Positions 3,963 to 42,600 of a DNA stretch of 64,000 nt are shown piece by piece. A program made the translations under genes and the position numbers. Below the pieces are notes generated by a model. It worked only from the letters and a program-made list of their open reading frames with translations, had not been told where the DNA came from and searched no databases. Location of the stretch: the NCBI GenBank assembly GCA_963774955.1, contig CAVZGV010000003.1, forward strand, positions 256,771 through 320,770, given 5' to 3'. Origin of the DNA: Candidatus Falkowbacteria bacterium (GTDB lineage: Bacteria > Patescibacteriota > Patescibacteriia > CAIXNZ01). Position 1 is the first letter of the stretch, and every line of letters starts with the position of its first letter.

Positions 3963-4040
3963 ATGTTTAGGTTTTAAGTAGACGTATATGAAAAAAGAGC
4001 TCCGCGGTTGCGGGGCTCTTTCGATTTTAATTTTTTGCCA

Positions 4041-4607
4041 TTATCTGGCAAAGGGGTCGATGGTATCCATCTTTTTGGTGCGGAAGGTTTCTTCGGTTGC
4101 TTCCGTGGTGATGGTTTTGCTCAGTTCATCCAGGTTGATTCTGGGGAAGCCGAAAATACCGGCGACCAGGCTGTTGGGGAAAGTCAGCAGGCTTTCCCTG
4201 TACACTCGTATTCTGTCGATTTTGTCCCGCTGTTTGGCCTCGAAACTGTTGTAGCCGGCTTCGATCACGGCTTGCAACTTGAGAAAGACAGCTGAGTCGA
4301 TCGTAGGATTTTGTTCCGTGATCAGGCTGATGGCAGCTTTGGAGCCACCGTCGCCGTAACGGCCGGTCATGGAGGCGTCAATAGCCTTGATAACCATGTC
4401 ACCGTATTTTTCCACGGACAGGCCCTGGGACTTGATGTTGTTGTAGATGCTGGCATGCACGTTTTTCATGTCTTCATGGCTAGCCAGGATGCCCTGTTCC
4501 TGTCTGATCAGGTTATTGTATGAGCCGAGTACGTAGATACCGCAGCCACCGACAACGGCGACCAGACCACAGACGATGACCAATACGAACACTCCAACCG
4601 TTTTCAT
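4041..4607 (-). CDS. lemA: LemA family membrane protein
   Basis: N-terminal TM helix (MKTVGVFVLVIVCGLVAVVGG) followed by a LemA-like domain (NNLIRQEQGILASHEDMKNVHASIYNN...YNSFEAKQRDKIDRIRV). AGGAGG lies 6 nt upstream of the ATG at 4607. The track ORF is extended upstream through the neighbouring gene. Confidence 0.85.
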   Translation of the reverse strand: MKTVGVFVLVIVCGLVAVVGGCGIYVLGSYNNLIRQEQGILASHEDMKNVHASIYNNIKSQGLSVEKYGDMVIKAIDASMTGRYGDGGSKAAISLITEQNPTIDSAVFLKLQAVIEAGYNSFEAKQRDKIDRIRVYRESLLTFPNSLVAGIFGFPRINLDELSKTITTEATEETFRTKKMDTIDPFAR

Positions 4608-4627
4608 TTTCTTCCTCCTAATAGGGG

Positions 4628-7326: not shown

Positions 7327-9330
7327 ATGTCAAACAAAGGGAAATTAATATCTTTAGGCGCAGTTTTTTTCTTTTTAGCGCTGATGTTTATGCCTCAGGC
7401 CTCAAAAGCTTTTACAGTTTTTCCGACTTCAGCAGCTTGTACCGCTTCTGGCGGAGTTATGGGAGATTTGAATCATGATACGAAAATAAATGATTTGGAT
7501 GTCGCCGTAATTAGTCATATATTTGTTGGTACCGAACCATATACCCCTTGTGGCGATTTTGATAGTGATGGCATTATTGGTCCCGGAGAAATGTCGCAAC
7601 TCAGGACTTTATCCTGGGATATTGACGCCGGCCGAGTAATAGCTCCGACAGCTGAACTTTGGACCAATAGTTTTTATAATCCTTACAGAATCCCGGCTTG
7701 TCAGACAGTATTTGGCGATGTAAACGGTGATTTAAAAGCTGATTATCAGGATGTGTCCATTATTCAGTATATGATTGTGATGAAATTGCCTGCTAGTTTA
7801 TGCGGTGATTCTAATAGTAACGGTATTATCTCACCTGTTGATTATTCAGTTTCTCAAGGAATTAGCCTAGGCCTTTCATATGCTCATTTGGAAAAACCAA
7901 TTATTACCTTGATTGGCTCTAACCAAATTACTTTACAAGTTGGTACCGTCTATACTGAATTGGGAGCTACCGCGAATGATACTCAAGATGGTGATTTGAC
8001 CGCTTCTATTTTAATTGATTCTTCTGCTGTAAATACTGCTGTTGTGGGGACATATGTTGTTACCTATAATGTGACTGATTCCAACGGCAATAACGCTATG
8101 GAACGACTACGACAAGTAAATGTTGTTGATACAACCATTCCAGTCATTACATTATTAGGGGTAAATCCTCAGGCTATTGCCAGAGGACGTGCTTATGTTG
8201 AATTAGGAGCCACAGCTAATGATAATTATGACGGTGATATTACCGCTTCAATTCTTATAGATGCGTCTGCTGTTAATATCAGCGTGGCCGGAACATATAC
8301 TGTGACCTATGATGTTACTGATGCCAACGGCAATCCGGCAACTCAGGTAACCAGAACCGTGAATGTTATTTCAACAGGCTCTGGCAGCGGAGATGTGACT
8401 CCACCGACAAATTTAAGCTTGGTCATTAATGACGACGCTAATATTTCAAATAATATAAATGTAATTTTGACCATTGGAGCTACGGATGCCAGTCAAATGG
8501 TTATAAGTAATGATTCTGAATTTGACGTTGCTCAATGGGAGCCTTTTAGCACCAGTAAAGATTGGCAGTTGACAGAAGGTTCTGGCCGTAAAGTCGTTTA
8601 TGCAAAATTTAGAGATTCCGCAGGTAATGTTTCGGCTACAATTTCGGACGAAATTACCTTAGTACCGGAAGTCGTGCCAGTTGATGAAACAGAAGGCGCC
8701 ATTATTGAAGAAGGCGAAGTTTTGGGCGAAAAAATTGTGGCAGCCGGAACATTAATAAAAAGAGCGGATATTAGCAGTGTATATTTTATAGGCGCTGACG
8801 ATCGCAGGCACGCTTTTCCGAATGAACCTACCTTTTTCAGTTATTATTCTGATTTTTCAGAGGTGTTGACTGTTTCCGCTGAAACTTTGGCAGCCATACC
8901 TATGGGCAGCAATGTAACTATGAATCCGGGCACCTGGCTGGTAAAAATTCAGTCTGAACCCAGCGTTTATGCTGTGGAGCCATCCGGAGTATTGCGCTGG
9001 ATTTCCAGCGAACAAATTGCTTTAAACTTGTATGGCAGCGGCTGGGAGACTAAAATTGTCGATATTGAACCTACCTTTTTCGTTAATTATCAGATCGGTT
9101 CTGAAATAAAGATAGCCAGTTATCCGACCGGCCAATTGATTTCATACCAGGGCAGCGACAAAGTGTATTACGTTGATCAGGGGCAAATAAGACTTGTTGC
9201 CGCTAATGTTTTCCAGAACAATAATTATCAGAGCAAATTTGTTATAAATAACGCATCCACTTTGATGGCTTATGAAAACGGTCTTGATTTGCCGGCTTCC
9301 GGCATGGAAGTGGTGATTGCCTTGAGATAA
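7327..9330 (+). CDS. Secreted multidomain protein with four dockerin/EF-hand-like Ca-binding repeats, two Ig-like (DUF5011-type) domains and a C-terminal domain
   Basis: Signal peptide (MSNKGKLISLGAVFFFLALMFMPQASKA). Four repeats match Dx[ND]xDxxI spacing (GDLNHDTKINDLDVAVI, GDFDSDGIIGPGEM, GDVNGDLKADYQDVSI, GDSNSNGIISPVDY). Two ~75-aa tandem repeats read PxITLxGxNxxxxxxGxxYxELGATANDxxDGDxTASILIDxSAVN...GTYxVTYxVTDxNGN. Confidence 0.7.
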   Translation: MSNKGKLISLGAVFFFLALMFMPQASKAFTVFPTSAACTASGGVMGDLNHDTKINDLDVAVISHIFVGTEPYTPCGDFDSDGIIGPGEMSQLRTLSWDIDAGRVIAPTAELWTNSFYNPYRIPACQTVFGDVNGDLKADYQDVSIIQYMIVMKLPASLCGDSNSNGIISPVDYSVSQGISLGLSYAHLEKPIITLIGSNQITLQVGTVYTELGATANDTQDGDLTASILIDSSAVNTAVVGTYVVTYNVTDSNGNNAMERLRQVNVVDTTIPVITLLGVNPQAIARGRAYVELGATANDNYDGDITASILIDASAVNISVAGTYTVTYDVTDANGNPATQVTRTVNVISTGSGSGDVTPPTNLSLVINDDANISNNINVILTIGATDASQMVISNDSEFDVAQWEPFSTSKDWQLTEGSGRKVVYAKFRDSAGNVSATISDEITLVPEVVPVDETEGAIIEEGEVLGEKIVAAGTLIKRADISSVYFIGADDRRHAFPNEPTFFSYYSDFSEVLTVSAETLAAIPMGSNVTMNPGTWLVKIQSEPSVYAVEPSGVLRWISSEQIALNLYGSGWETKIVDIEPTFFVNYQIGSEIKIASYPTGQLISYQGSDKVYYVDQGQIRLVAANVFQNNNYQSKFVINNASTLMAYENGLDLPASGMEVVIALR

Positions 9331-9352
9331 CTTTACTCTAAAAATAACAAAG

Positions 9353-9380
9353 CTCCCTCACGTACGGGGGAGTTTTTGTT
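9353..9380 (+). terminator. Rho-independent terminator
   Basis: CTCCC-TCACGTACG-GGGGAG hairpin followed by TTTTTGTT. Confidence 0.5.
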
Positions 9381-9449
9381 AATCTCGCCAGATAAGCCTT
9401 TTTTTGCTATAATTAAATTGTAATTATGTAATATGTTTTTTTTGAGTCT

Positions 9450-10361
9450 ATGGCCAGAAAAATAGTAAAATTTGGGGGCATTACCTGGGTAAATATTGAA
9501 AAATTTGATCAGGAGGAGGAGAAATACCTCCGGGAAAATTATAAATTTCATCCTTTAACCGTGAAAGATTGTTACGATATCAGCCAAAATGCCAAGGTGG
9601 ATTTTTATGAAAATTATCTTTTTTTAATTCTGCATTTTCCTCACTTGAATAAAGTTGAATTTCGTATTGGTATCAATGAACTGGCAATGTTTGTCGGCCC
9701 AGATTTTTTCATTACCGTAACCACGGGGAAATTTAAAAAAATTAGTAAATTATTTTTTTTAATCCAGCATAATTCCAAACTGAGGCAGGAGTATCTGTCT
9801 TCGGGCGTTAATTATCTGGCGTATATGGTTGTTAAAAGTCTTTTTGAAAAGGGAACCAGACCCATTAGTAATTATTTGAAGCAAAGAATAAGAGATATTG
9901 AAACAGAGATTTTTGAGGAAGGTAAACGTCAAACCTCGGTTAAAAAACTCGCTTTGATCCGACGCAATATTTTAAATTTTAGAAGTGTCTTGGAGCCGCA
10001 AAAGGCTGTGGTTAAAAGTTTGACCACGAGTAAATTATTGGCTGATTTTAAAGATTATTTTGATGATATTAATGACTATTTGGAGAAATTATGGTCGACT
10101 TCCGCCAATTACAAGGAGTTGATCGACGGGTTTAACGAAGCTAATGAATCTTTAATTTCTTTCCGGACCAATCAGATAATTACAACTTTGACGGTGATTT
10201 CTGTGGCTTTACTGCCTTTGACTTTGTTCTCCAGCATTTATGGTATGAATATTGAGCTGCCGTATGCTGAATATCCTCATGTGATTTGGGGCGTCTTTAT
10301 AACCGTCTTTGCCGCCATAATTATTTCACTTTTATATTTAAAGCGAAAAAATAGAATCTAA
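9450..10361 (+). CDS. corA: CorA-family Mg2+/Co2+ transporter
   Basis: Two C-terminal TM helices carrying the YGMN motif (IYGMNIELPY) after a ~230-aa cytoplasmic domain. A TGCTATAAT promoter sits at 9405-9413. Confidence 0.8.
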   Translation: MARKIVKFGGITWVNIEKFDQEEEKYLRENYKFHPLTVKDCYDISQNAKVDFYENYLFLILHFPHLNKVEFRIGINELAMFVGPDFFITVTTGKFKKISKLFFLIQHNSKLRQEYLSSGVNYLAYMVVKSLFEKGTRPISNYLKQRIRDIETEIFEEGKRQTSVKKLALIRRNILNFRSVLEPQKAVVKSLTTSKLLADFKDYFDDINDYLEKLWSTSANYKELIDGFNEANESLISFRTNQIITTLTVISVALLPLTLFSSIYGMNIELPYAEYPHVIWGVFITVFAAIIISLLYLKRKNRI

Positions 10362-10366
10362 AATTT

Positions 10367-10933
10367 ATGTCAAAAATTCAAGTTGAAGTTTCAGCCCGTC
10401 ATTGTCATTTGAGCCAAAAAGATGCTGATACTTTGTTCGGTAAAAATTATCAGTTTAAAGTCATGAAAATGGTGTCCCAGCCTGGCCAGTTTGCCACGGT
10501 TGAGGAGGTTACGGTTAAAGGACCTAAAGGAGAATTTAAATTAAGAATAGTCGGGCCGATTCGTAACGATACTCAGGTGGAACTGGCGGTGACTGATTGT
10601 TTCCGTTTGGGTGTGAAGCCGATTATCAGGGTTTCCGGTGACATTAAAGGGACTTCAGGCGCAGTTTTGATCGGACCAAAAGGACAGGTGAGCATCAAGG
10701 AAGGTGTTATTGCGGCCCAAAGACATTTGCATATTGCTCCAGCTGAAGCCAAAGTCCTGAAAGTTAAAACCGGTCAAATTGTTTCTATGAAAATAAAAGG
10801 TCCCAGGGGTTTAATCTTTAATAATGTAATTGTGCGTTCAGGACCTGGTCATAAAAAGTCATTTCAGATTGATACTGATGAAGGCAATGCCTGCGGTTGG
10901 GTGCCGGGGATGACCGCGGATTTAATTGTGTAA
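10367..10933 (+). CDS. pduL: PduL/EutD-like phosphate acyltransferase
   Basis: VEVSARHCHLSQKDADTLFG and a second AQRHLHIAPAEA repeat fit the two-repeat HxH architecture of the PduL family. The gene starts 5 nt after the corA stop. Acetate kinase follows two genes downstream, and no classical pta is present in the window. Confidence 0.75.
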   Translation: MSKIQVEVSARHCHLSQKDADTLFGKNYQFKVMKMVSQPGQFATVEEVTVKGPKGEFKLRIVGPIRNDTQVELAVTDCFRLGVKPIIRVSGDIKGTSGAVLIGPKGQVSIKEGVIAAQRHLHIAPAEAKVLKVKTGQIVSMKIKGPRGLIFNNVIVRSGPGHKKSFQIDTDEGNACGWVPGMTADLIV

Positions 10934-20596: not shown

Positions 20597-20634
20597 AAAA
20601 CCCCGAGGAACAAGTCCGCGGGGCTTTGGTTTTT
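20597..20634. terminator. Bidirectional terminator between recJ and the convergent 833-aa gene
   Basis: Hairpin CCCCGAGG...CCGCGGGG flanked by AAAA and TTTGGTTTTT. Confidence 0.5.
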
Positions 20635-23134
20635 AATCCTCGTCAGGATCGCTGCCGACAAAGAAGGTGTGAAATTCTCGATCAACAATTTTTGCTCCTG
20701 ATTTGAGGTCACCGCCCATTGAATCCGAATATTCGAATTCGTTGAGTGACGGCGGTAATTCCAGACGCAGGGTTCTGGTTTTGATCTTGGACTTGGGTAG
20801 GACCTCTTTGAGCAGGTCTACCAGTTCCTGGTCCTTGACTGCAATCATTACCGGTAAATCATTATCCCTGCTGATTTTGCCGGCTTTGGCTATCAGCCAT
20901 TGCAGCATGCCGATGCCGATCTCCCTGGACCAGGCTTTGCAGTACGGCCTTTCCATCAAAAGCAGGGGAATGGTTTCCTTATCCGTGTGGCCGTATTCAA
21001 ACGGCAAGAGGCGCATAATGCTGCGGCCAATGATGTCAAAATGATTATTTCTGATCCACAGTACTCGTTTGTTGGCATCAACCACATAAGCCGCCAGGCA
21101 TTGATTATGACCAGTCCATTCGTGCCAGCGTTGACAGCTTTGAACAGGTAAAGTACCGACTTTCATCAGCTCATAAGGCTTATCACTGTCTTCAAAGGTC
21201 AGATGCGAGATAGCTGAAGTGTCAGTGCTATTGAGCAGCTCAATAATTTGCTGCGTCAATTCTTTGGCTTCGGACGTGCCCAGCTTCTGAGCAATTTGGG
21301 ATAAATGACGCTGGATGTCTTTGAGCATTGTAACCGTGATCGCATTGATTTTCAACAACTCGCAGATGATTTTGATCAGGCCATATTCTTTTTTGATCTG
21401 ACCGAGTCTGGCGCCAATTTGCTTACGCTCTTCGGGAGACAAATCAGTGCCTCTGAGTTTCTTAACAAGATCTTCGTTTTCAGCGTCAATATCTGAGGTG
21501 ACTGGCTTGCCCGTGTGTTTTTCCCAGAGTACAGCTAGTTGTCCGGCTAAACGTTGGATAGCGTTGAGGCGCTGCTGGAGCGCGTCTGTCAGTCCGACAA
21601 TCATGGCATGCCGATGATCATCTTTCCACGCTTTCGGATTTGACAAGAAGTTGATTTGTTTGCCACTTGTTTTGTTACTGTAGCGCCAATGGTCAAAATG
21701 CTTGGCCATGGCTTGTTTGAGTGTTTCTGAGGCCAGCTCGGCCCCGCGCTCATAGCCATTGGCTTTGCATAATGAGGCATAGGTAAAGCACATTTCCAGC
21801 AGACCGTTTCTAGCCACAAGCTGCCAGATGTTATCCTGGGTCAGCAGGTTTAATTCTTCATCACTAAGATTAAGAATCTTTTTGTACATGGCTTTGGTTC
21901 CGTTTTCAACTTGGTAAACCAGATCTTCCATGGAAGCGCAATCAGCCGGATAGTTTAGATCCGATCTGGAACGAAGGCTAAGCATCTCAATGGCTTGTAA
22001 GCCCCGCAATAATTCCTCGCAGGAATTGGCCAGACTGATGAAATGACACAGTGATTTTTCAGCCTGCCCGGCATAGCGGAAGATATTCAGACAGCGCCAC
22101 AGCAATCTCTTGTCATCGCGTGACTTCTGGAAATGCTTGTCCGTGGTCAGCTCTTCCAGCTTGGCAATGATCTCTCGGGCCTGAGGCATTTCAAACTGAT
22201 ATTTGGTCAGAATGAGAAAGCCCAGACTCAGGGGCAGATTTTTCAGCGCTTGCAGCAGTTCCAGCCGTTCTGGCTGCTCGAAACATTGTTGCCAATCGAG
22301 ACTGCTTAGTGGATAGTCTATCAGGCTGCCGGCTTTGTAGTGGATGTTTTGCAGGATGACGGTAATGGCAAAACAGAATTTATCAGCTGTGTTTAGACAG
22401 GCTTGGATATCTTCAAGTTGCATTTTGAGCTGATCAAAATCCTTGGCTGAATTCTTGGTTTCTTTGGCCAGGTACGCAAGCAGGGAAGTGACCTCAGTCA
22501 GGGATAATCTTTGCAGAAAAAACGGGACCAGCTCGATGATGGCCGCAATATCATTGCCGGCGCCATCTTGATGCAGGGTTAAGAGGCTCCAGAATGCGTT
22601 CTGATAGTCTCTTTCGTTTAGACAATCATCCGCTGTATGCTCGGATAATTTATTTTGGTACGATTGCCAAATTGAGGAAGGCAGAGCATTGGCATGAGCC
22701 ATGGCCAAACTTAATTTGATGACCAAAAGCTGCCAGCTTCTCCAGTTTAGATATGTATCTTCCAGACATGAATTTTGCGGGCAGTGATCTGTCAGGTTAA
22801 GTAATGCCTGGGCCAATTCTGGAAGGCGGACTTGGCTGCGCATTTTGGGGCTTAGATTACCGCGCGAAGAAAATTTCGGTTTGACTGCTTTGGCCGTACT
22901 TTCTTTGGCCAGAAACTGTTTCCAGTCCTCAAAGGCAGAAAAACCTTTATTCAGCAGTTTCTGGTATCTTTCCAGCTGAAAGATTTCATAAAGAGCTTCT
23001 TTGTTGCCGTCATTCAGCAACCCCAGCTGTATTCCCAAATTTTGAGCCAGCACAAGACGTTGTTCTAAGCGCTGTTCTAACCTTGCCTCTTGCCGTAATT
23101 CCGGCCGGCAACACATCATAAGACCTAGTGCCAT
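20633..23134 (-). CDS. Large (833 aa) predominantly alpha-helical hypothetical protein, first gene of the high-GC island
   Basis: Long ORF with high-GC codon usage (CTG, GCC, CAG). It contains no Walker, HxH, GGDEF or other motifs I can recognise and has an acidic C-terminus (VGSDPDED). Confidence 0.6.
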   Translation of the reverse strand: MALGLMMCCRPELRQEARLEQRLEQRLVLAQNLGIQLGLLNDGNKEALYEIFQLERYQKLLNKGFSAFEDWKQFLAKESTAKAVKPKFSSRGNLSPKMRSQVRLPELAQALLNLTDHCPQNSCLEDTYLNWRSWQLLVIKLSLAMAHANALPSSIWQSYQNKLSEHTADDCLNERDYQNAFWSLLTLHQDGAGNDIAAIIELVPFFLQRLSLTEVTSLLAYLAKETKNSAKDFDQLKMQLEDIQACLNTADKFCFAITVILQNIHYKAGSLIDYPLSSLDWQQCFEQPERLELLQALKNLPLSLGFLILTKYQFEMPQAREIIAKLEELTTDKHFQKSRDDKRLLWRCLNIFRYAGQAEKSLCHFISLANSCEELLRGLQAIEMLSLRSRSDLNYPADCASMEDLVYQVENGTKAMYKKILNLSDEELNLLTQDNIWQLVARNGLLEMCFTYASLCKANGYERGAELASETLKQAMAKHFDHWRYSNKTSGKQINFLSNPKAWKDDHRHAMIVGLTDALQQRLNAIQRLAGQLAVLWEKHTGKPVTSDIDAENEDLVKKLRGTDLSPEERKQIGARLGQIKKEYGLIKIICELLKINAITVTMLKDIQRHLSQIAQKLGTSEAKELTQQIIELLNSTDTSAISHLTFEDSDKPYELMKVGTLPVQSCQRWHEWTGHNQCLAAYVVDANKRVLWIRNNHFDIIGRSIMRLLPFEYGHTDKETIPLLLMERPYCKAWSREIGIGMLQWLIAKAGKISRDNDLPVMIAVKDQELVDLLKEVLPKSKIKTRTLRLELPPSLNEFEYSDSMGGDLKSGAKIVDREFHTFFVGSDPDED

Positions 23135-23708: not shown

Positions 23709-24017
23709 TTAGGCGGCTTGGGCCAGGCATTTGCCGGCGCACTGCACGCAGTATGGCTGGCAGGGAAGCTGGCCAGGCAGTTTGTCAAAGCCGTTTTGGA
23801 GAAAAAATTTTTCAATTTCCTCCATGCTTTTGCCGATGATGACTGGTTGGTTGTCCACTACTTCCAAGAAGATTCCGTCTCCGCAGATGCTTCTGGGAGT
23901 AATGTCATAGCGGACGTCTTTGGGTTTGTACAGCGGGTTGGTTGTCTGGTTCAAGATGGTAAACATCAGCCAGACTCCCAGATTACTGACGCGCAAAATC
24001 CTCTGGCTAATCGGCAT
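23709..24017 (-). CDS. Small hypothetical protein (102 aa) with a C-terminal Cys cluster
   Basis: AGGAG lies upstream of the ATG at 24017 (MPISQRIL...). The C-terminus reads CQPYCVQCAGKC. The stop is 13 nt before the next gene's start, so this is a two-gene operon. Confidence 0.5.
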   Translation of the reverse strand: MPISQRILRVSNLGVWLMFTILNQTTNPLYKPKDVRYDITPRSICGDGIFLEVVDNQPVIIGKSMEEIEKFFLQNGFDKLPGQLPCQPYCVQCAGKCLAQAA

Positions 24018-24454
24018 GATTTTTCTCCTTGGTTCGGTAGGCTGTTTGGTTGACAAAGGCCAATATTTATGGTTAAATCTATTGATTCTGGATTTATTAT
24101 CATATCATATTTATTCAATTTTGTCAAGGTTTAGTGCATTTCTTTGGATTAAATTGGCTAATTTTAGTCAATTATATAGTTAGTTGCTAATTTGGGGCAC
24201 AAGCATAGGTCATGAAAGCATTATTAGACTGTAAAATTTGACAACTTTGTTTTATTTGTTTAAGATTGGAAATTGTTTTATCATAGAAGTAGAGGAGGAT
24301 AGGTTACGACGGAATTGCATCTTGATTGGACATTTAAAATAATGAAGGCCCTCCTACACTAAAGCTTCGGAGGGCAAAGGAGGTGAATTAGTCGCGGCAA
24401 AGGAAAGTGTTGGATGTTAACTCGAACCAGAAAATTCACGGCAAGGAGGCCAAA

Positions 24455-27274
24455 ATGAGCAACAAAAAAGGAGGTGCCAATAAGCGCCTCAAATTGCTCA
24501 AAACAAGGGCCAGACCAGCTTTGAACTTCCCAGAGCTGGTTGGGATAGCCAGACATAGCTCAACTCCAAATGAGGCTGCCAAAAAAGCCACTGAGGAATT
24601 GTGTTATGAGCTGGCTTATCTCGCTGCCGGCGATCGGGTTGAAGCCTTAAAACAAGTCAAAGTTCTGCAAAGCGCTGTTCATCAGCTGACTGTAATCAGA
24701 AGAGATTATGGTCGTGCAGAATTTGGCAAGTTTGTGGCTGCCAATTCCGTGTCGACGGCAGACTCTACCAGTCCACGCTTACTGAAAAATGTAAGCACGG
24801 ACCAGAGCAAACAAGGAGAAAAGGATATGAACAGAAAAAAAGGAACAGCGGTCAAGGTCGAGAAGCAGGAAACTAACGTCCAGCCGAGCATTCCGCTCAA
24901 GCACATTACGTATAATGTTGCTTTGAACGGCGCACATGCCCGGGTGCGTTCCATCCAGGAATTCACCAATGACGCTGATCATCCGGTGGAAGCGATTTAC
25001 GTTTTTCCACTGCCTGATGAAGCCAGTGTCACGGCATGTTCGATGAAGATCGGTCGCAAGACCATCAAGGCTGAACTCAAGGAACGAGAACTGGCGCGCA
25101 GGGAATATGACCAGGCGATCAGCTCCGGTCATCACGGCGCTTTGATGGAACAGGAACGGCCAAACATTTTCACCATGAACGTGGGCGGCATCGAACCGAA
25201 AGAAACCATCAAAGTGGAAATCACCTATGTGCAGCGTATTCATTGGCAGGACGGCGGCGGTCGCTTTCGCGTGCCTCTGGTCGTAGCGCCCAGGTTTATC
25301 CCCGGTGTTCCGACCGGCAAGCAGGCTGGTGGCTGGGCTCCGGATACTGACGAAGTGCCGGATGCTTCGCGCATCACTCCGAATGTGGCGCCTGAAGGCG
25401 TGCTTTATAACGCCAGCATCAATGTCTCGTTCGCACCAGGTTTCCGCTGCCAAATGACTTCACCGTCACACGACATGATCGTCAAGGACCAGACTGTGGC
25501 CAAAGACGCCAAGATCGAACTGAAAACCGGCGACATCCGGACTGACAGGGACTTCACTCTGGTTTACAAATCCTTGTCCAAACGGCCTGAAGTCGCGGTT
25601 TTCCAGAATGCGGGCAAGGACGAAAGTTTTTGCCTGGTCAACATTCTGCCTCCGGGTGATGTGGCGACTGTTCCCAGCGATGTGGTTTTCCTGCTCGACA
25701 TTTCCGGCAGCATGGACGGTCCCAAACTCGAGGGCCTGAAAGTCCTGGCCAAAAAAGTCCTGACCAAAATCAGGGACCAGAAGCTGGGACATCGGGTTTC
25801 CATCATTGCTTTTGAAAGCAGGCCGCATCTGATCGTGCCGCTGAGTGACATCTCTGATGTGCATTTGCAGGGTATTGATCGGCTTAGCGACACGGGTGGA
25901 ACCGAACTCGGACCGGCGCTGACAGCGGCTCATCAGCAATTGGGTGACAGTGGTCGTCCACGTATTATTTTCCTGATCAGTGACGGCCAGACCGAAAGCC
26001 TGAATTACCAGGGACACGGAGTTCGGATCATTGCGGCTGGCATCGACAGCGCAGTCAATGATTCCACGCTCAAACAGCTGGCGCAGAAGACCAACGGTAC
26101 CTATGTGAATTACTTCCCGGGCGAAGACTTTGACCGCGCAGCCAACAGCCTGATCGGCATGCTTTCCGGACCGGTTCTGCGTGAAGTCAAAGTGGACAGT
26201 CAGGCTGAAGTGGCCGGGCTGACCGATGTCTTTACCGGACGGCCGGCTTCCATTGCTCTGCGTTTTGACCAGGGTCTGCCTGCTGAAATAAAAATCAGCG
26301 GTCAGGATCCTTCGGGTCAGGAGCAGACTTGGAATTTCAAACCGGCCAGTGGCAAAGATTGCGACTTCGCTGCTCAGATCTGGGCGCGCGAGGCTATCCG
26401 TGAAACGCCGGACAAAACCAAACAGGTGCAAATCAGTTTGAAACACGGCGTCATCTGCAGCGGAACTTCTTTCGTGGCCATTTCCGAAAAGGAAGTGCCG
26501 GGTGAGAAACCGGTGCGGGTGGAGATCCCGGTGAACCTGCCCATGGGCTGGGTCTATGACAAGATCTTTGGCGGAGCCAGTTCTCACGTTAAGGGTCTGG
26601 GATTGAACAGTTCCAGAATCGGCGCTCCGATGGCGCTTCATGCCTTTGCACCTCCGTCTCGCAGCAGCTTTGGGCTTGTTGATGATGACTTTGGCAGCGG
26701 TCATGTTGACTCTTTCGAGTGCTGCTTCGAGGATTCGCCAGTCTACGGAGACGCAGAATGCATCGAGGAAGTTTGCGAGTGCTGCGGATGCGAAGACGAG
26801 GACGATGTGTCCGGTGGCGGACAGGAAATTTTGGACGACTTTGGATATGAGCGTTTCAACTTGGAATCACTTGATCTGGTTGACCGGCTGATCGCCATCA
26901 TGATCAACATCCAGCTGCCTGGTTATCCTTCTCAGAACGCCGAAGCCACTTTCATCGAGCTTGAACGCAACTTGACTGTCAAGGAAATCAAGTCCTGGAG
27001 CGATGAAAAACGGGCCATGGCACTGTACTTCGTGATGCGCCTGAGATCTTGTGGCCTCAAATTGGAAGACCCGAAGGTGATGGATGCTCTGGCTGTGCCG
27101 TCCAAAAATTCCAAAGAAGCGGACTGCTGGCAGTATCTCACGGCCAAGGAAATCGGACTCGGCACTCAGGGTGTTCCTGCTGTTCCAAATTCCATGGACG
27201 GCGCGGACTACATCATGTGGAAAATCAATCCGATCAATCCGCAGCCGACCGGTGACTGGTCGCTTGTTCCTTAA
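24455..27274 (+). CDS. VIT (vault/inter-alpha-trypsin) + von Willebrand factor A domain protein with an acidic Cys-cluster C-terminal region
   Basis: The VIT-like region runs ITYNVALNGAHARVRSIQEFTND...VFPLPDEASVTACSMKIGRKTIKAELKER...TYVQRIHWQDGGGRFRVPL. The vWA has a complete MIDAS (VVFLLDISGSMDG...SDTGGTELGPAL...FLISDGQ). The tail reads CCFEDSPVYGDAECIEEVCECCGCEDEDD. AAGGAGG lies upstream of the ATG at 24455. Confidence 0.8.
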   Translation: MSNKKGGANKRLKLLKTRARPALNFPELVGIARHSSTPNEAAKKATEELCYELAYLAAGDRVEALKQVKVLQSAVHQLTVIRRDYGRAEFGKFVAANSVSTADSTSPRLLKNVSTDQSKQGEKDMNRKKGTAVKVEKQETNVQPSIPLKHITYNVALNGAHARVRSIQEFTNDADHPVEAIYVFPLPDEASVTACSMKIGRKTIKAELKERELARREYDQAISSGHHGALMEQERPNIFTMNVGGIEPKETIKVEITYVQRIHWQDGGGRFRVPLVVAPRFIPGVPTGKQAGGWAPDTDEVPDASRITPNVAPEGVLYNASINVSFAPGFRCQMTSPSHDMIVKDQTVAKDAKIELKTGDIRTDRDFTLVYKSLSKRPEVAVFQNAGKDESFCLVNILPPGDVATVPSDVVFLLDISGSMDGPKLEGLKVLAKKVLTKIRDQKLGHRVSIIAFESRPHLIVPLSDISDVHLQGIDRLSDTGGTELGPALTAAHQQLGDSGRPRIIFLISDGQTESLNYQGHGVRIIAAGIDSAVNDSTLKQLAQKTNGTYVNYFPGEDFDRAANSLIGMLSGPVLREVKVDSQAEVAGLTDVFTGRPASIALRFDQGLPAEIKISGQDPSGQEQTWNFKPASGKDCDFAAQIWAREAIRETPDKTKQVQISLKHGVICSGTSFVAISEKEVPGEKPVRVEIPVNLPMGWVYDKIFGGASSHVKGLGLNSSRIGAPMALHAFAPPSRSSFGLVDDDFGSGHVDSFECCFEDSPVYGDAECIEEVCECCGCEDEDDVSGGGQEILDDFGYERFNLESLDLVDRLIAIMINIQLPGYPSQNAEATFIELERNLTVKEIKSWSDEKRAMALYFVMRLRSCGLKLEDPKVMDALAVPSKNSKEADCWQYLTAKEIGLGTQGVPAVPNSMDGADYIMWKINPINPQPTGDWSLVP

Positions 27275-27310
27275 ACATCAACTCTAACCGTTAGCTGGCA
27301 ACAGTTAACG

Positions 27311-27346
27311 AGGGGCTTGTGGTGAAAACCGCAGGCCCCTTTTTTA
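27311..27346 (+). terminator. Rho-independent terminator after the VIT-vWA gene
   Basis: AGGGGC...GCCCC hairpin followed by TTTTTTATTT. Confidence 0.5.
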
Positions 27347-27584
27347 TTTGGTCAATAGTGTTGTGGTTAAGATGTCGGTTTTGTAATTGGTGTTTCGGGT
27401 AATGTTTTTTGTTACGTGAAATGAAATTTGTCTATGTTATCAACAGTTTTATAGTTTATGTTTTTAAAATATTATGCTATAATTTAAATAATAAATAATA
27501 TTTACTTTAGTTGAGATTGTCGCTTTGTCAGGGGGGTGAGGAAATATTCCAAGGGGATATTTTTTTAGTTATAAGGAGGGAAAG

Positions 27585-28067
27585 ATGGTTAGTAGTGAAA
27601 AGGATCGTCCTGACAGTAATTTGCCGGTTGAAAAACGGCAAGCTCCCAGAAAGGTTGTTCCAGCAAGCGAACGGTTTTCCGTTGTTTTGGGACAACCAGA
27701 TGGTACTTTTAAACCGCCTAGAGAAGTCAGCAGGAAAATACCGACTGAAGCTCTGAATGCAAGATTACTTGCGGCCCAAAATGCCAATTGCACCATAGTG
27801 GATATTTCAGAAATTGGTCTGCGCATTTGCCACAGCGTCAACTTGAATGAGGGCGAAACCGTCGGAATTTTTTTTCAGATTTTTTTAGGACTACCCAACG
27901 AAGAGAAAGGCATTACGTTGATCTGTCAGGTGATTTGGCATAAACCATGGAAAGCCGCTAAGGGCTTGGGCCATTTGACCGGCTTAAACATCATTCACAA
28001 TTCAGACGACGTAAGCTACAAGCAATTTGTAGCCAGCCTACCAACTTTAGCACAAGCCCGCGCCTAG
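27585..28067 (+). CDS. Putative PilZ-domain (c-di-GMP-binding) protein
   Basis: An RxxxR motif (RQAPR) is followed by DxSxxG (DISEIG) ~50 aa later. AGGAGGG SD. A TGCTATAAT promoter sits at 27475-27483. The spacing between the motifs is longer than canonical. Confidence 0.4.
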   Translation: MVSSEKDRPDSNLPVEKRQAPRKVVPASERFSVVLGQPDGTFKPPREVSRKIPTEALNARLLAAQNANCTIVDISEIGLRICHSVNLNEGETVGIFFQIFLGLPNEEKGITLICQVIWHKPWKAAKGLGHLTGLNIIHNSDDVSYKQFVASLPTLAQARA

Positions 28068-28082
28068 CGCGGGCTTTTTTTA
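28056..28082 (+). terminator. Rho-independent terminator; the stop codon lies in its loop
   Basis: GCCCGCGC-CTAG-GCGCGGGC followed by TTTTTTT. Confidence 0.6.
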
Positions 28083-29745: not shown

Positions 29746-30714
29746 ATGGCGATCGATTTTTTAGGTAAAGAAGGGGAAAAACTGGCCAAAAAGGAGGCAA
29801 TTGCCATAAAGATGCATAACCCTGAAAAACAGGTTGTGGCAACTTCTAAGCAAAAAGAAAAACCTAAAGTTAAACCGAAAAAAGAAACGCCTAAGATTCA
29901 GAGTCGGGAGAAGTTCGAGCAGGTCAATTTAATCTTTTCTTTCAAGCAATATATTTTAAAGCGCAGGTTAACTTTTATTCTAATTTTTGTTATAATTATT
30001 GCAGTCCTAGCTGTTTTCGTCTATTGGTTGCTAACCAGACCAAAACCGATTTCGCCACCACCGCCGCCTATTCCCGTTTGCGGTAATGAGAAGATTGAAG
30101 CGGGAGAACAATGCGATTCGAGCGGCTGTATTACTGATCAGGTCTGTGTAGATTGTCAGTGTCAAAATATCATTATATCGCCACCACCGCCGCCGGCACC
30201 TGTTTGTGGTAATGGACAAATTGAAACAGGGGAACAATGTGACCAGATTGGCTGCTCAACAAATCAGACTTGTGTAAATTGTCAGTGCCAAGGAGTTATT
30301 GCCCCACCACCTCCGCCACCACCGCCTCCGCCGGCACCTGTTTGCGGTAATGGTCAGGTTGAAACAGGTGAGCAATGCGATTTGACTGGTTGTACTCCTG
30401 AGCAAACTTGCCTTGATTGCCAATGCCAAATAGTAATTTTGCCGGATACTGAATTAGCGCCTTTACGCGGTGCTCTTATCAAATTTAGTTCAGATAATAA
30501 TATTTATTTGATTGATTATAACGGTGAATTGCGATTAGTCGATCCCTTAACAGCAAGCTTTAAAAACAATCAAACCATCAGGGATATAAAAATAGATGAA
30601 ATTTATTTAATCGCTGATCAATATAAAACGGTACGAATGGGCCAGCCAGTTTTAGGTAAAGTTGACTGGGATCCCCGAATATTAAGTTCTGCAGAACTAA
30701 TTCCTTTTCAATAA
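29746..30714 (+). CDS. Membrane-anchored protein with three Myxococcus-type Cys-rich repeats and poly-Pro linkers (PilN position)
   Basis: A cytoplasmic N-terminus and one TM precede 3x [P-rich]-VCGNGxIExGEQCDxxGCxxxQxCxxCQCQ and a ~90-aa C-terminal domain. The gene starts 10 nt after the pilM stop. Confidence 0.55.
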   Translation: MAIDFLGKEGEKLAKKEAIAIKMHNPEKQVVATSKQKEKPKVKPKKETPKIQSREKFEQVNLIFSFKQYILKRRLTFILIFVIIIAVLAVFVYWLLTRPKPISPPPPPIPVCGNEKIEAGEQCDSSGCITDQVCVDCQCQNIIISPPPPPAPVCGNGQIETGEQCDQIGCSTNQTCVNCQCQGVIAPPPPPPPPPPAPVCGNGQVETGEQCDLTGCTPEQTCLDCQCQIVILPDTELAPLRGALIKFSSDNNIYLIDYNGELRLVDPLTASFKNNQTIRDIKIDEIYLIADQYKTVRMGQPVLGKVDWDPRILSSAELIPFQ

Positions 30715-36633: not shown

Positions 36634-39600
36634 ATGATAAATCCAAGGAAAATCAGACAAAAAGTGGTTTTCTTGAAGTTTTTTAGTTTTAAAACTAAGC
36701 TTATTTTAAGTTTGGTTTTTGTTTTAATTATCGCTATCATCTTCTCAGTTAATTACTTTGTCCCGGTCAGCGCGGACAATTTCTTAGTGACTGAAAATTT
36801 TACCACTGATACTTTGAAAGATGCGAATGCCACTACTGGTATTTGGGACACTACTTTGAATCAAGCTCGGTTGTTAGGTAAAGATTGGATTAATATGGAG
36901 GAAACTAAAGATACTTACGGACCGTTTACAACTTTAACCGATTCTGTGTTGAATTATAATATTACTTATGATACAAGTGCAAATCCTTATATTGTTTGGG
37001 TGTCAAATGGAGTGGGCGGGGTTGGCGATGTTTATTTTACCAAATGGACGCCCGGGACAGGCTGGACAGGTATGGACTGTATCTCAGCGTATGACAATAT
37101 TTCCAGCTCCACAGCACTTTCTTCGCAGCCTAAAATAAAATTAGACGGCGCCGACGATCCGATTATAATTTGGTCTGAAAGTTCGACTTCGACTGATATC
37201 TATTTAGCTCATTGGGATAGCGGTAATAACCGCTGGGCCAATATGGCGGGTAATGCGAGTGCTCCCGAAAACATCAGCCAAGATTCAGTTAATAACACTT
37301 TTTTTACCCTGGAAGTAGATGGTACTGGTAAACCGGCCATTGTTTTTACTAGAAATGTGGGCCCAACTATAAATGATTTGTATTTTACGACTTGGAATGG
37401 CACAACATGGACCGGTGCGGACGGGGTTGATACTGATTTTAATCCTTTAATCTATGAAAACGATAAGATATCTGATTCCTCTACCAGTTATGGCAATGAA
37501 AATATTAAGTTGAGATTTAACAGTTTGAACGAACCCTATATTGCTTGGTGGCAAATAATTGTTAGTCCGACCAGAGTCTTATTTACAAAATGGACACCCG
37601 CAGTTGGTTGGACGCATATGGACGGAACTACATTAGGTTTTGAACCAATCAGCGATCTTACCAAGGTAGGTTCCCAGCCTAATTTGGAGATGGGTACTGA
37701 TGATTTTCCTTATATTACTTATGTGGAAGCTCCCGTTGGCGGTGGCCCTAGTTCAAATTTAGAAATATTATTTGCCCATTGGACCGGTTCAGGCTGGTAC
37801 GGTATGGATGGAATAGTTTTACGTGATAATGTTTCTATAAACACCAGTTCATCGCAGGTACCTCAGATGAAACTTGATGCCGGGAATAACCCCATTGTTA
37901 TTTGGCGCGATACTACTCCACCCGGAGGTGGCGCAGTTACCCAATTAGAAGTCTACTTACGCAAATGGACAGGTGTTGCCTGGACGGCCATGGATGGTAT
38001 TGCTACCTATGATAATATCTCAAATACTCCTGCCGCCAGGTCATATACTTATAATTTAGCTGTAGATAGTACGGGTGAGCCAAATCTTTTCTGGGGAGAC
38101 GGTCCTTCATCTTTGTTAAATTATTATTTCACCCGCTGGGTGGTTGGTAGTGGTTGGGAAAAAATTGACGGTACTTTAGGCCAAGATGCGGTATTGTCCG
38201 GTGCCGCGATTAATAGTTTTTCAGTTGGACCCGATGATACCCCCTATGTTTTATTTGCAGATCCACCGTCAACTGGACAGCCACAGCTGATCAAAGGTAA
38301 AGATATTTATGCGTCTACTTCTGATATTGTTTCTTTGAATATGAATACAGGTTCTGATTTCGTAGTATCGGCCAAGATTTCCGCGGCGGAAACTCTTAAT
38401 GGCCAAACAGTAAATTATTTTTTATCCAATGACGGTGGCGCTACTTGGGAGGTTGTCAGTAATAATGTGGCGCATGATTTTATTACCTCTCATGGTTTTG
38501 ATTTGCGCTGGAAAGCGGAACTGGTGACAATTTTGAATTCGGTTACACCTGTAGTTGATGATCTGGACATTACTTATAGAACAAAAAAAATATTCTGCAG
38601 TCTTTCTCCGACTTCTGTACTTCAGGGACAGCCGGTGACTATTGCAGCGACTACCAGTTTTGTGCCTGGTGCAGTTTGGGCTACGGTGGAAAAAAACGGT
38701 GAGGTTTTAAGCACGGTAACAATGAATAATGTCGGTGGCAATAACTTTAGCGTTAATTACAGTACCGCGGGAACCAATTTAGGTAGAAATGACGTGGCAG
38801 TATTTGCCTCCAATGCCACAGATACTTATGTCTGTAATCCTTCTACCGGTGTTGACTGGCAGCGGATGTCAACCAATGATATCCCTTGGGACCCACGGAC
38901 TTTTCACGGCTCTGTCAGTTTGGGAAATTATATTTATCTCTTTGGAGGTTTATCGGACAGATTTTTAAGTGATGTTTGGCGTTCTCAAGATGGTTATAAT
39001 TGGCAGCAGATGCCTGATGCCCCCTGGGCCGCAAGAGGGATGTTTGATCCTATTGTTTTTAACGACAAAATTTGGGTCATGGGCGGTCGAAGTTATGTTT
39101 ACTTAAGCTCTCCAGTGAACTACGGTGATGTCTGGTATAGCTCAGACGGCCAATCATGGACACAATCAACTAATGATCTGCCGTCATCACCTGCAGTTAC
39201 CCGCAGGACTTATGCCTCGACAGTTTTTAATAATAAATTATGGATTTCCGGCGGCAATTCAGGCGGGCCTACCAATGATGTCTGGTATAATGATGATCCC
39301 ATAACTAATGCCTGGGTTCAGGCGACACCAGCTGCCAGCTGGTCAGTTAGGACTCTTCATCAAATGGTTACTTTTGATAATAAAATGTGGGTAATGGGTG
39401 GCAATGGTCCTTTAAACGATATCTGGCATTCAACAGACGGTGTTAATTGGTATGATACTTTTTGCCAGGGAGGAGTTGATGACGGCCAAGCCTGTGTTAT
39501 TGGCGGGGATTGCGATTCAAGTTCTTGTTTGTCAGAAACAGCAGCCTGGCCTGCCAGAGTAGATTTTCAAGCCTTGGTTTTTGATGAAGATGGTAGCGGG

Positions 39601-42600
39601 CCTCAGCCGGAAAAAATGTGGGTCATGGGCGGTGCTGATTTCCTAGCTGAAGGCAGAACAAATTATAACGATGTTTGGTCCTCCGTAGACGGATCAACCT
39701 GGATTTTAAGAAGCAATCCGCTTTGGACGGCATCTTATCCGTTAAATTCCGCACCCGCAACCTGGGAAATGTGGTCAGCCAGAAATGGACTTCAGGTAGT
39801 TAAGCATAATAACGGTGCAGGGGATAAGTTATATTTATTAGGAGGTTATGAATATCGAGCTGCATCTCAAAATGATGTTTGGATTTCCAGTGACGGTTCA
39901 AATTGGGATATATTAAATACTTCATATAATGCTCCGTTTTCGCCAAGATTTAATACAAAAATAATTGATTTTAAACCTGCTTTAGGCACTGATCAACTTT
40001 GGTTATTAGGGGGTAAGACCAGGAGTGGGGGATTAGCTAATGATATTTGGAGTACTGCTGACGGACGGACTTGGTCATTAAAGGTTGATAATGGTATAAC
40101 GCCCTGGTCTGCACGTTTTGGCCACAACGTGTTTACTTTTGATAATAAATTATGGATTTTAGGCGGTTGCGCCAATGATAAAGAAAGAGCAGATCCAAAT
40201 ACTCAGCCTCAACCCGGAGCATATTGCTTGGGCAAATGTGACGGTGGCACTAATAATGGTGCTTATTGTAATGTAGCAACTGATTGTAATTCCTTTAAAT
40301 GCAAATGGCAGGGATTAAATGATATTTGGAATTCAAATGACGGAGAAAATTGGACTTGTGTTGTTGGTAGCGGCTGTCCTAATCCTGTGGCCTGGGCTGG
40401 ACGCTATGGCCAGACAGTGGCAACTTATAATGGCAAAATATATTTAATAGGTGGCATTACCCGCGGAGCCTGTTTAGGTGCTCCTGTGTTAGGTTCGGCT
40501 TGTACTGGCAATGCTCAATGCGTTGCCGGTGGCGGAACTCAATGTGCGGGCGTGTGTTTGTCAGGTACAAATGCTGGAAATCCTTGTCTTAATGATGCTG
40601 CTTGTGGGGGAAATAAATGTTCTAATTATGCTAACGTTTTTAATCGGGATGTTTTATCTTCCTCAAACGGCTATACTTGGACACAAGAAATTGCTAGTGC
40701 TCCCTGGCCTCTAAGATATAATTCCAGCGCTATTAGTTTTAATGACGGTTATGCAGAGAAATTATATTTTTTTGGTGGTTATTATGTAGGTCCTATATAT
40801 TACAACGATGTTTGGTGGACAACTGATGGCGCTACCTGGCGCAATACTTTTTGCCAAGGGGGGATCTATGAAGGCAAGGCTTGTATTATCGCTGGTGATT
40901 GCGGTACTGGAATTTGTGCTGCTAAGACAGCTGAATGGCCGGGTAGAATGACATTTGCCCTCCAAAAATATAATGATAAATTATGGGTTTATTCTGGTCA
41001 GACTTTGGGAGATATTCCTGGGCCGGGAACCCAGTTATTACCAGCTCTTTGGACAAATGATGTTTGGTGGTCAAATAACGGTTCTTTTTGGACTCAAGCA
41101 AATAATACGGCTGAGTTTCCTGGCCGTGATTATTTTACTTCTGCAGTTTTTGATAATCGTTTATTTTTGACTGGTGGTGATTCAAACTGGGGCACTATGA
41201 ATGATGTCTGGGCCTCAAGTTATGATTATAGCAGTATGAATTTTACCGTGAGTTCGGCACCCGGTTCAACCGGTTCGAGTTGTACAGATACAGTGCCGGA
41301 AGATCCCGGAGATGTTGTGGCTCCGTCTTTGCCCTGTGTAGCTACTAGCTCAGCAGCCATTGACTGGGATTTTGTGGATAATGCGGCCTGTGAAATGGGA
41401 TACAGACTTTATGACGCTGCTACGGATGTCAGAATAAAATATGTAGAACAGCCGAATTTGAGTTTAATTTCGGAAACCGGTTTGGATGTAAATAATCAAT
41501 ATAGCCGCTATGTCACAGCATATAATGCGGCCGGCGAATCAGCCGCAACCACAGCTGCCAGCTGTTTTACCCTGGCCAAAGTGCCGAATAAGCCGATCAT
41601 TTTAAGCGCCAACGAAAATGAAATAATATTGCAAATAGATCCTAATGACGGTAATCCCGTGGGTACAGAATATGAAATCAAGGAACTATTGACTAACCAA
41701 TTTGTTCAGGCCGACGGAACCTTTGGAGCCGGAGAAACCTGGCAAACTTATGATAATTGGGGAGGCGACAGCGGATTAGCAGTTATCGGTGAATTGCCAG
41801 CAGCAGAACAGCCGCTATATGAGGAACCATATCAACAGCCTGATTTAAATAATAATGAAAATATTAATGCCGCCTTTCATATTAGTTTAACCAGCGGCCA
41901 GAATTATAATTTTACCGTGCAGGCGAAAAACGGCGACGGGATACCAACGGGATTTTCGGCAACTACTTCTGCTACTACAGTTACGACAGGGCCTGGAACA
42001 GTTTTAGCACCGAATGTAGGCGCAGAGAAAGGCGTATTCAAAAAAATAACCTGGCATTCTTCCTTTGGTCTTTTTAATGTTGCTCTGGCCAGCAATAAAT
42101 TGTTAATTAATGCGAGCGGACCAATTAGTCACGTGTTGGCAGTTTTGTCCTGGTTGTTGAATCTAACGTTGTTGATTTTATTAGTTATGTTAGGTTTGAG
42201 TCTGTACCAGACCTTAAAATATCTTAAACATGAAATTAAGTACCCTGATACGTTCCGATTAATCTGGTCAATTTTAAGCAGGGAAGCGCAGCATAGTTAT
42301 AAAAGTGATGCTTTAAGGACAGCAGACGGTGTTTATTATATAAGTGCTTTTGGGCAACATAAAAAACTGCAGAATTTAAGTCAACAGACTTTTAAAGGTA
42401 CTTTAGCGGCTATGGGTATAAAATTGATAATATTGGGAACATTATTTACGGGGCTGATCACTGTAAATCACAGTAGCTTAGCGCTTCTGCAGCCATATAA
42501 TTTGGGCGGGGAGACTTTAAAAGTTGGTGATGTTTTGACTTATGATTTGGAGGTTTCTAATAAAGGTACGGCTCCGGCTCAAAATATCGTCATCAAAGAT

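Follow-up and report, generated by a model that had tools for sequence, protein, structure and literature searches.

Dictyostelium Vwa1 and human VWA5A are intracellular proteins in which VIT is followed by vWA, then by an extended disordered loop and finally by a C-terminal domain made of helices (PMC10539598, clade B). Structure models place this C-terminal domain on the vWA domain, and an autoinhibitory role has been suggested for it (PMC10539598). The ITIH proteins are extracellular, C-terminally processed and glycosaminoglycan-linked proteins of animals without such a helical tail, and PARP4 possesses BRCT, PARP catalytic and MVP-interaction domains. The secreted bacterial VIT-vWA proteins, including those of the NCBIfam model TIGR03788 ("marine proteobacterial sortase target protein"), carry a signal peptide and an LPxTA(T)/transmembrane (TM) anchor. 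ArnB (8s05, 5a8j), of the archaellum regulator pair ArnA/ArnB, consists of a cytoplasmic vWA domain and a beta-sandwich, is far shorter and has no VIT domain. Here, we describe a VIT-vWA protein of 939 amino acids (aa) encoded in a stretch of 64,000 nucleotides of Candidatus Falkowbacteria bacterium (assembly GCA_963774955.1, contig CAVZGV010000003.1, positions 256,771 to 320,770), hereafter called the window. With moderate confidence, we favour the reading that this protein is a cytoplasmic protein-binding module of the ITIH/VWA5A kind, which depends on a MIDAS (metal-ion-dependent adhesion site), carries two tethered helical regulatory or adaptor domains and is specific to bacteria of the Candidate Phyla Radiation (CPR) and to DPANN archaea.

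The VIT-vWA gene is real: at E<=1e-3 it has more than 2000 homologues. Among the 120 best matches listed, about 115 cover most of the protein, and the family counts given below are based on them. The family comprises more than 100 sequence clusters, and its member P0001 is 100% identical to the window protein. The order VIT then vWA, which had been read from the letters in an initial annotation of the window, was confirmed by Pfam with the VIT family PF08487 at residues 148-258 (E 9e-34, 116.4 bits against a cut-off of 26.5) and the VWA family PF00092 at residues 409-560 (E 1e-16, 62 bits against a cut-off of 23.8). The MIDAS is intact, as had likewise been claimed: the strings DISGSMDG, TGGTEL and SDGQ are found at residues 415, 480 and 509, and D415, S417, S419, T483 and D510 are invariant in 115/115 family members examined. 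A full-length AlphaFold2 model built from 77 homologues (predicted local distance difference test, pLDDT, 84.4; predicted template modelling score, pTM, 0.83) splits the protein into five parts, namely an N-terminal module, a first linker, the core, an acidic second linker and a C-terminal domain. When this predicted, not solved, structure was compared with Foldseek, the top match was ITIH1 (6fpy; E 5e-25, probability 1.00, about 620 columns, 14% identity), which shares the core fold and the MIDAS motif with the window protein. Further matches were an intraflagellar VIT-vWA protein of T. brucei, archaeal ArnB, pilus tip adhesins and integrin beta subunits. With VIT before vWA above the Pfam thresholds, a full MIDAS and an ITIH1-like arrangement of the modelled core, the protein belongs to the VIT-vWA superfamily.

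The core is widespread in bacteria, with at least 592 confirmed GTDB loci, and residues 147-706 are matched at 30-34% identity by VIT-vWA proteins from many groups, among them Acidobacteriota, Nitrospirota and Gammaproteobacteria. TIGR03788 aligns to residues 152-701 with 295.5 bits, which is below its cut-off of 551.65, and neither a signal peptide nor a sorting signal was seen by hydropathy, so that the protein falls outside this family. The secreted proteins share the motifs QERPNIF and MNVGGIEP with the window protein, but in place of their anchor the window family has a linker and a helical tail. In the PDB the best sequence match is PARP4 (E 7.6e-24, 87 bits, query 145-554 against PARP4 620-1027); however, secreted relatives from Acidobacteriota and Nitrospirota reach 118-134 bits to PARP4/ITIH4. 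A special relationship to PARP4 and the vault was thus rejected, and the description of the domain order as that of eukaryotic ITIH/PARP4-type proteins turned out to be misleading. Pfam finds only VIT and vWA families in the window protein and none of the additional PARP4 domains, and no MVP (Vault) domain was found among the annotated neighbours of eight loci, the whole genome not having been searched. An SPFH-like domain forms the shoulder of the vault protein MVP, and a 683-aa Band_7 (SPFH) protein is encoded (3793-5844, minus strand) 2 kb upstream of a Falkowbacteria family member in locus L007, in this one lineage only; this adjacency is probably coincidental. Judged by sequence comparison, the CPR/DPANN proteins diverged from an ordinary bacterial VIT-vWA family and have no signal peptide; they show no special eukaryotic affinity, because the secreted bacterial relatives score higher to PARP4/ITIH4.

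Members with a named source come mostly from CPR bacteria (Parcubacteria, Buchananbacteria, Falkowbacteria, Uhrbacteria and "Patescibacteria group") or from DPANN archaea (Aenigmarchaeota and Pacearchaeota). The archaeal origin is genuine for two contigs, L006, in which EF-1alpha is the next gene, and L134, which encodes MCM, while the "Pacearchaeota" contig L005 may be misassigned, because it carries bacterial-type pilin and MshEN domains. In a simple Kyte-Doolittle hydropathy scan, which is not a dedicated signal-peptide predictor, no N-terminal hydrophobic segment and no TM-like stretch was detected in the window protein, and the same holds for 113/115 relatives. The cytoplasmic location assumed in the initial annotation is thus plausible, and the double zinc ribbon fused to the N-terminus of family member P0070 fits it. 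Most of the 17 relatives sampled at 30-34% identity have hydrophobic N-termini, and several end in LPxTA(T) followed by a TM anchor and basic residues; relatives with such signals include Nitrospirota and Gammaproteobacteria.

The closest likeness in layout is to VWA5A (BCSC-1) and Vwa1, with which the window protein shares the lack of a signal peptide, the VIT domain, a vWA domain with flanking hybrid parts and a kept MIDAS, a disordered loop and a helical C-terminal domain. This likeness is one of layout, and no sequence link was found between their C-terminal domains and the tail of the window protein. Moreover, the window family differs in its optional N-terminal helical module and its restriction to CPR/DPANN, organisms in which there is no F-box or ubiquitin partner. 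The claim that the protein represents no described family is half right, as the general intracellular plan was already described for Vwa1/VWA5A (PMC10539598). ArnB is matched both by sequence (E 3.4e-7) and by fold (E 3e-13), and it works with a zinc-ribbon protein, and P0070 has its fused double zinc ribbon; however, it has no helical tail, and no FHA or kinase partners were seen in the family loci. No MoxR AAA+ ATPase, Bat operon or kinase/phosphatase triad was found in the window neighbourhood or in the eight annotated loci, and on the window protein the models for BatA and BatB stay well short of their cut-offs.

The C-terminal domain defines the family. The tail of about 150 aa had been described as conserved-looking, and residues ~793-939 are indeed conserved among homologues. 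In about 63 of the 115 members it is long and ends W-S-L-V-P, and in the remainder it is about 35 aa shorter. Modelled alone with AlphaFold2 it is an all-helical domain of eight helices (pLDDT 93.7). No PDB or BFVD match to this fold was obtained at E below 0.3, and its sequence gave no match in Pfam, NCBIfam, PHROG, PADLOC or the PDB sequences. Its profile found only 61 matches among 1.84e9 representative proteins, consisting of family members and about 20 standalone proteins of 138-160 aa, which start with Met and end near WxxVP; three of these were confirmed as complete open reading frames (ORFs) within their contigs. A metagenome scan with a narrower tail alignment yielded only five loci. 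The tail is an autonomous domain, because standalone proteins occur and the tail alone models confidently, and in these searches it was found only in this family and as standalone protein. In the archaeal contig L134, where an MCM helicase is encoded nearby, a standalone tail protein of 158 aa (10001-10477, plus strand) is translationally coupled to a 418-aa protein (8745-10001, plus strand) with N- and C-terminal TM segments and no Pfam match; no VIT-vWA gene lies within the 11.3 kb of this contig fetched.

The N-terminal module is a basic five-helix domain, and the first 147 aa, for which a basic extension of about 150 aa had been claimed, contain 27 K+R against 15 D+E, with an isoelectric point (pI) of 10.0. 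The module is present in about 40 of the 115 members and absent in about 65% of them; it is nearly always paired with the long WSLVP tail (38 members versus 4). The N-terminal end varies across members and in P0070 is replaced by the double zinc ribbon, and the module is optional and swappable. In locus L009 the module has an 88-aa ORF of its own (7702-7968, plus strand) just upstream of the VIT-vWA gene (8001-10400). Because the frame of this ORF overlaps that of the VIT-vWA gene as counted from stop to stop, the split form may be a real gene fission or an artefact of a frameshift or single-base assembly error. When the extensions were checked, the module, too, showed no match in Pfam, NCBIfam, PHROG, PADLOC or the PDB sequences. 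A match of its profile to alpha-COP (3mkq_B; E 0.023, 18 bits) was taken as chance, and the module is not a duplicate of the tail, as domain E-values exceeded 0.05 with all filters off.

In the AlphaFold2 model the core makes up 60% of the chain and 14% of the residues are disordered. A pTM of 0.83 despite these proportions implies that both end-domains would be placed confidently against the core, i.e., docked on it. In the reading we prefer, the MIDAS cation would bind a protein ligand through a carboxylate or acidic side chain of the latter, in the manner of integrins, ITIH1 and CLCA1, and the tethered end-domains may pack on the core as regulatory (autoinhibitory) or adaptor surfaces, following the proposal made from structure models for the helical C-terminal domains of Vwa1 and VWA5A. 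The tail would probably act in trans as well, because it also exists as a free protein. Against this reading it counts that the absence of a signal peptide was judged from hydropathy and that non-classical export is possible; the docking of the end-domains is predicted from the pTM value.

The features of the gene and its flanks are compiled in Table 1. The ATG at 24455 is likely the start codon, and it is preferred over the upstream GTG at 24407 because a Shine-Dalgarno sequence precedes it and homologues begin at the same Met; the homologues share the N-terminus MS(N/K)KK in the alignment. A read-through peptide "HGKEA(K/V)M" is also found upstream of the homologues, which indicates that the stretch before the ATG is conserved. 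With a promoter-like site, a Shine-Dalgarno sequence and a strong terminator to itself, the gene forms a monocistronic unit. When a riboswitch or leader was looked for, Rfam gave no match at gathering score in the 400-nt upstream gap or in the 3' region.

Table 1. Features of the VIT-vWA gene and its product, and of flanking open reading frames (positions in the window unless a locus is named).
Feature	Position	Strand	Remark
Sigma-70-like promoter match TTGACA-17-TAAGAT	24238..24266	+	about 190 nt before start codon; consensus match only
Shine-Dalgarno sequence AAGGAGG	24443..24449	+	5 nt before the ATG
Coding sequence of 939-aa VIT-vWA protein	24455..27274	+	stop codon included
N-terminal module, residues 6-99	24470..24751	+	basic five-helix domain; AlphaFold2 pLDDT ~88-96
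Disordered linker 1, residues 100-141	24752..24877	+	pLDDT 33-41
ITIH-like core, residues 147-707	24893..26575	+	VIT, vWA Rossmann domain, flanking beta-sandwich parts
MIDAS DxSxS (D415-I-S417-G-S419)	25697..25711	+	conserved in 115/115 members
MIDAS T483	25901-25903	+	
MIDAS D510	25982-25984	+	
Disordered acidic linker 2, residues 708-792	26576..26830	+	pI 4.05; pLDDT 31-43
Cys/acidic patch CCFEDSPVYGDAECIEEVCECCGCEDEDD, residues 756-784	26720..26806	+	7 Cys in 29 residues, inside linker 2
C-terminal helical domain, residues 793-939	26831..27271	+	ends W-S-L-V-P; defines the family
Intrinsic terminator	about 27310..27351	+	14-bp stem with 8 GC pairs, then T-run; 36 nt past stop
833-aa protein	20633-23134	-	GC3 0.53; GC-richer than genome
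Small ORF, 113 aa	23354..23695	-	internal ATG; GC3 0.58; ends DSKAA
Small ORF, 102 aa, divergently transcribed	23709..24017	-	ATG start (115 aa from TTG 24056); GC3 0.67; ends CVQCAGKCLAQAA
Promoter-like site for 102-aa ORF	24127-24099	-	
Ala-Ala ORFs, L001	8837-9082, 9376-9684		
Ala-Ala ORF, L003	9174-9524		
Ala-Ala ORF, L010	9223-9570		
Ala-Ala ORF, L011	8610-8921		
Ala-Ala ORF, L137	7516-7833		
Ala-Ala ORF, L138	1116-1457		
Ala-Ala ORF, L139	4046-4387		

CPR bacteria and DPANN archaea have become known for the most part as episymbionts, and a family limited to these two ultra-small groups might be expected to serve host attachment, as a surface- or pilus-associated adhesin that is exported without a classical signal peptide. 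A vWA domain with MIDAS is typical of adhesin heads, and the pilus tip adhesins returned by Foldseek include PitA, SpaC and Mfa5. Moreover, in the clade of the window the VIT-vWA gene lies beside genes for PilZ, PilM, pilins and a prepilin peptidase, and in L003 and L139 a PilB-type ATPase is encoded just upstream of it. However, signal peptide, TM segment, sorting motif and class-III pilin leader are all lacking in 113/115 members, whereas the closest secreted relatives carry exactly those signals, which were therefore lost in the CPR/DPANN family. Pilus genes are not neighbours in L006, L007 and L009, and one member (P0070) begins with a double zinc ribbon. In view of this evidence we regard a role as adhesin as unlikely.

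The pilus region and the genes beyond it show some features of their own. The PilZ gene downstream of the VIT-vWA gene (27585-28067, plus strand) has its own terminator at 28054-28076, and its product diverges to an unusual degree among the four syntenic genomes (the window, L001, L010 and L011), with 27-81% aa identity as compared to 81-87% for RecJ. At the position expected for PilN, after pilM, a 322-aa protein with one TM segment is encoded (29746-30714, plus strand), in which three tandem Cys-rich modules (PPPPxPVCGNGxxExGEQCDxxGC...CxxCQCQ) follow proline runs; these modules presumably resemble the Myxococcus cysteine-rich repeat, and Pfam gave no match at E<=0.01. Three giant proteins of 2485, 2552 and 2287 aa, encoded consecutively (36634-44091, 44429-52087 and 52236-59099, plus strand) have near-identical N-terminal TM segments, and the one scanned, of 2485 aa, contains Kelch beta-propellers, DUF11, CarboxypepD_reg and fn3-like domains. 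The three resemble paralogous surface proteins of the kind common in CPR genomes.

With a guanine-cytosine (GC) content of 0.41, the window carries a typical CPR/Patescibacteria gene set including recJ, RNase H, ligA and a type IV pilus cluster. The four syntenic genomes keep the VIT-vWA gene between recJ and pilZ, and the content between recJ and the VIT-vWA gene varies among them. Neighbours differ in each of the eight lineages examined, and none with a recognisable domain is conserved across lineages. The VIT-vWA gene is GC-richer than its surroundings in the window and in 15 other loci (L001, L003, L005-L007, L009-L011, L052, L053 and L135-L139). Over 14 loci, the mean offsets at the first, second and third codon positions (GC1, GC2 and GC3) are +0.10, +0.09 and +0.14; those of GC1 and GC2 arise because the conserved amino-acid composition favours G, A, P, R and V. 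At GC3 the offset lies between -0.02 and +0.33, with the largest value in the Aenigmarchaeota contig L006, and the gene's GC3 is higher than in the neighbouring ORFs in 13/14 loci. Codon bias linked to expression was rejected as the cause, as EF-1alpha of L006 has a GC3 of 0.26 versus 0.62 for the adjacent gene, and the pilins of the window are at about 0.29. The excess is kept across the four syntenic genomes, in which the four-fold sites of recJ and pilM are mostly only about 45-55% identical. The most economical explanation would be that the gene was acquired horizontally more than once over time, with transfers between bacteria and archaea among these events. Another segment that may have been acquired is a GC3-rich pair of genes elsewhere in the window (4041-4640 and 4628-5944, minus strand), with GC3 values of 0.67 and 0.52 where the background is about 0.37. 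The product of the first shows a weak LemA-family match below cut-off, and that of the second has no Pfam match.

The GC-rich recJ-pilZ segment, its differing gene content, the GC3 excess in 13/14 loci and the small ORFs of at least six unrelated families that end in -AA in 8/14 loci could also indicate that the VIT-vWA gene is part of a horizontally acquired conflict or defence island, together with the GC-rich 833-aa protein and these small ORFs. Indeed, vWA proteins occur in MoxR-vWA conflict systems, according to literature cited in PMC13622651. The 833-aa protein, for which the initial annotation had proposed a partnership with the VIT-vWA protein and two small proteins, does not bear out such a role: the window and L011 have its gene, L010 has a version cut to 372 aa and L001 has none, and one relative lies in a locus without a VIT-vWA gene (14 kb fetched). 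Only two relatives were found in 5.8 billion proteins (57% and 39% identity), which makes three members in total, and Pfam, NCBIfam, PADLOC, PHROG and the PDB gave no match. It appears to be a near-ORFan in a variable island, dispensable and occurring elsewhere without VIT-vWA, and the partnership was rejected. No PADLOC match was obtained for any of the five proteins tested, so that a defence system is not supported, and no MoxR/AAA+ partner, nuclease or toxin domain was found in the eight annotated loci. The VIT-vWA gene has its own promoter-like site and terminator. No close family member is present in the viral contigs of IMG/VR, whose relatives show only 22-31% identity, and no meaningful PHROG match was seen, so that phage origin is not supported either; the window contains no tRNA and hence no tRNA integration site. 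Taken together, membership in such an island seems improbable.

Small ORFs of 81-116 aa that flank the VIT-vWA gene end in Ala-Ala in 8/14 loci, compared with about 2/285 other ORFs, the observation being post hoc and the loci phylogenetically clustered. The endings are LAQAA/LANAA, AVAA/MALAA, EKAA/KLAA, SKAA, ADAA and KQAA, which we take to resemble the ssrA-type C-terminal degron, and in the window clade these ORFs have a GC3 of 0.57-0.83. The 102-aa ORF of the window is 45% identical to a 103-aa ORF of L011, and no homologue was found for the 113-aa ORF; the link of both to the VIT-vWA gene is uncertain. It is conceivable, if quite improbable, that the family is a lineage-specific symbiont invention swapped between bacteria and archaea, acting as an ITIH-like cytoplasmic receptor that reads the adjacent, mutually unrelated Ala-Ala small proteins through its MIDAS, its tail or both. 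If this were true, it would constitute an unrecognised adaptor, quality-control or regulated-proteolysis module, and the GC excess would mark its repeated horizontal spread.

By analogy with the vWA-containing proteins Ro60, TEP1 and PARP4, the protein might be a scaffold for nucleic acids or ribonucleoproteins, with RNA or DNA bound by the basic N-terminal domain. The pI of 10 of this module, PARP4 as the best PDB sequence match and the frequent DNA-metabolism genes among the neighbours (recJ, uvrC, dnaX and ligA) would be consistent with it. About 65% of members, however, do not have the module, which resembles no nucleic-acid-binding family; the similarity to PARP4 is weaker than for ordinary secreted bacterial relatives, and no MVP, TROVE or PARP domains were found nearby, which makes such a function very improbable.

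The Cys cluster, which had been placed at about 26708-26810 and called metallothionein-like, is present at 26720-26806 inside the second linker, which is between 44 and 148 aa long in different members. Among P0001-P0015, the 15 closest relatives, Cys makes up 4.5% of the linker versus 1.0% elsewhere in the protein (odds ratio 4.5, p 7e-19), and a short motif C-[DEI]-E-V-C recurs there in acidic setting. Farther out the enrichment fades (weak in the following 52 members, absent from the distant 48, P0068-P0115), linker counts range from 0 to 7 with the maximum in the window protein, and the positions of the Cys residues cannot be aligned among relatives. No tandem repeat is present, and an origin of the patch by slippage was rejected. 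The linker gave no match to metallothionein or any other Pfam family, its Cys positions are not conserved and it is predicted to be disordered (pLDDT 31-43), so that the comparison with metallothionein finds no support. Metal binding or buffering as the main role, as the 7 Cys in 29 residues with their CC, CxC and CxCC spacings, the enrichment in close relatives and a cytoplasm that would keep the thiols reduced may suggest from the sequence, is hardly tenable for a disordered segment of so variable Cys content, given that conservation and selection fall on the MIDAS core and the tail. The Cys cluster is a lineage-specific feature of a disordered tether. Within our preferred reading of a MIDAS-dependent binding module, it would be an elaboration of this tether and not part of the core function, and it may be sensitive to metal or redox state.

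The fold and the likely mode of action of this protein are already known from other systems, and nothing in our analysis overturns the current understanding. Its interest lies mainly in the two end-domains without match, the restricted distribution across bacteria and archaea, and two unexplained features of the genomic context, the GC excess and the Ala-Ala ORFs. The two end-domains, which found no match in the databases searched, could enter domain databases, and with this family the eukaryotic intracellular VIT-vWA proteins (VWA5A/BCSC-1 and Vwa1), which are poorly understood, gain a prokaryotic counterpart. Much of microbial diversity belongs to the CPR bacteria and DPANN archaea, whose genomes are very small and most of which have not been cultured; to our knowledge, few of their lineage-specific proteins have a functional lead. 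A large, strongly conserved protein that is common to both groups and has an invariant metal-dependent binding site is thus a candidate for a central role in their biology.

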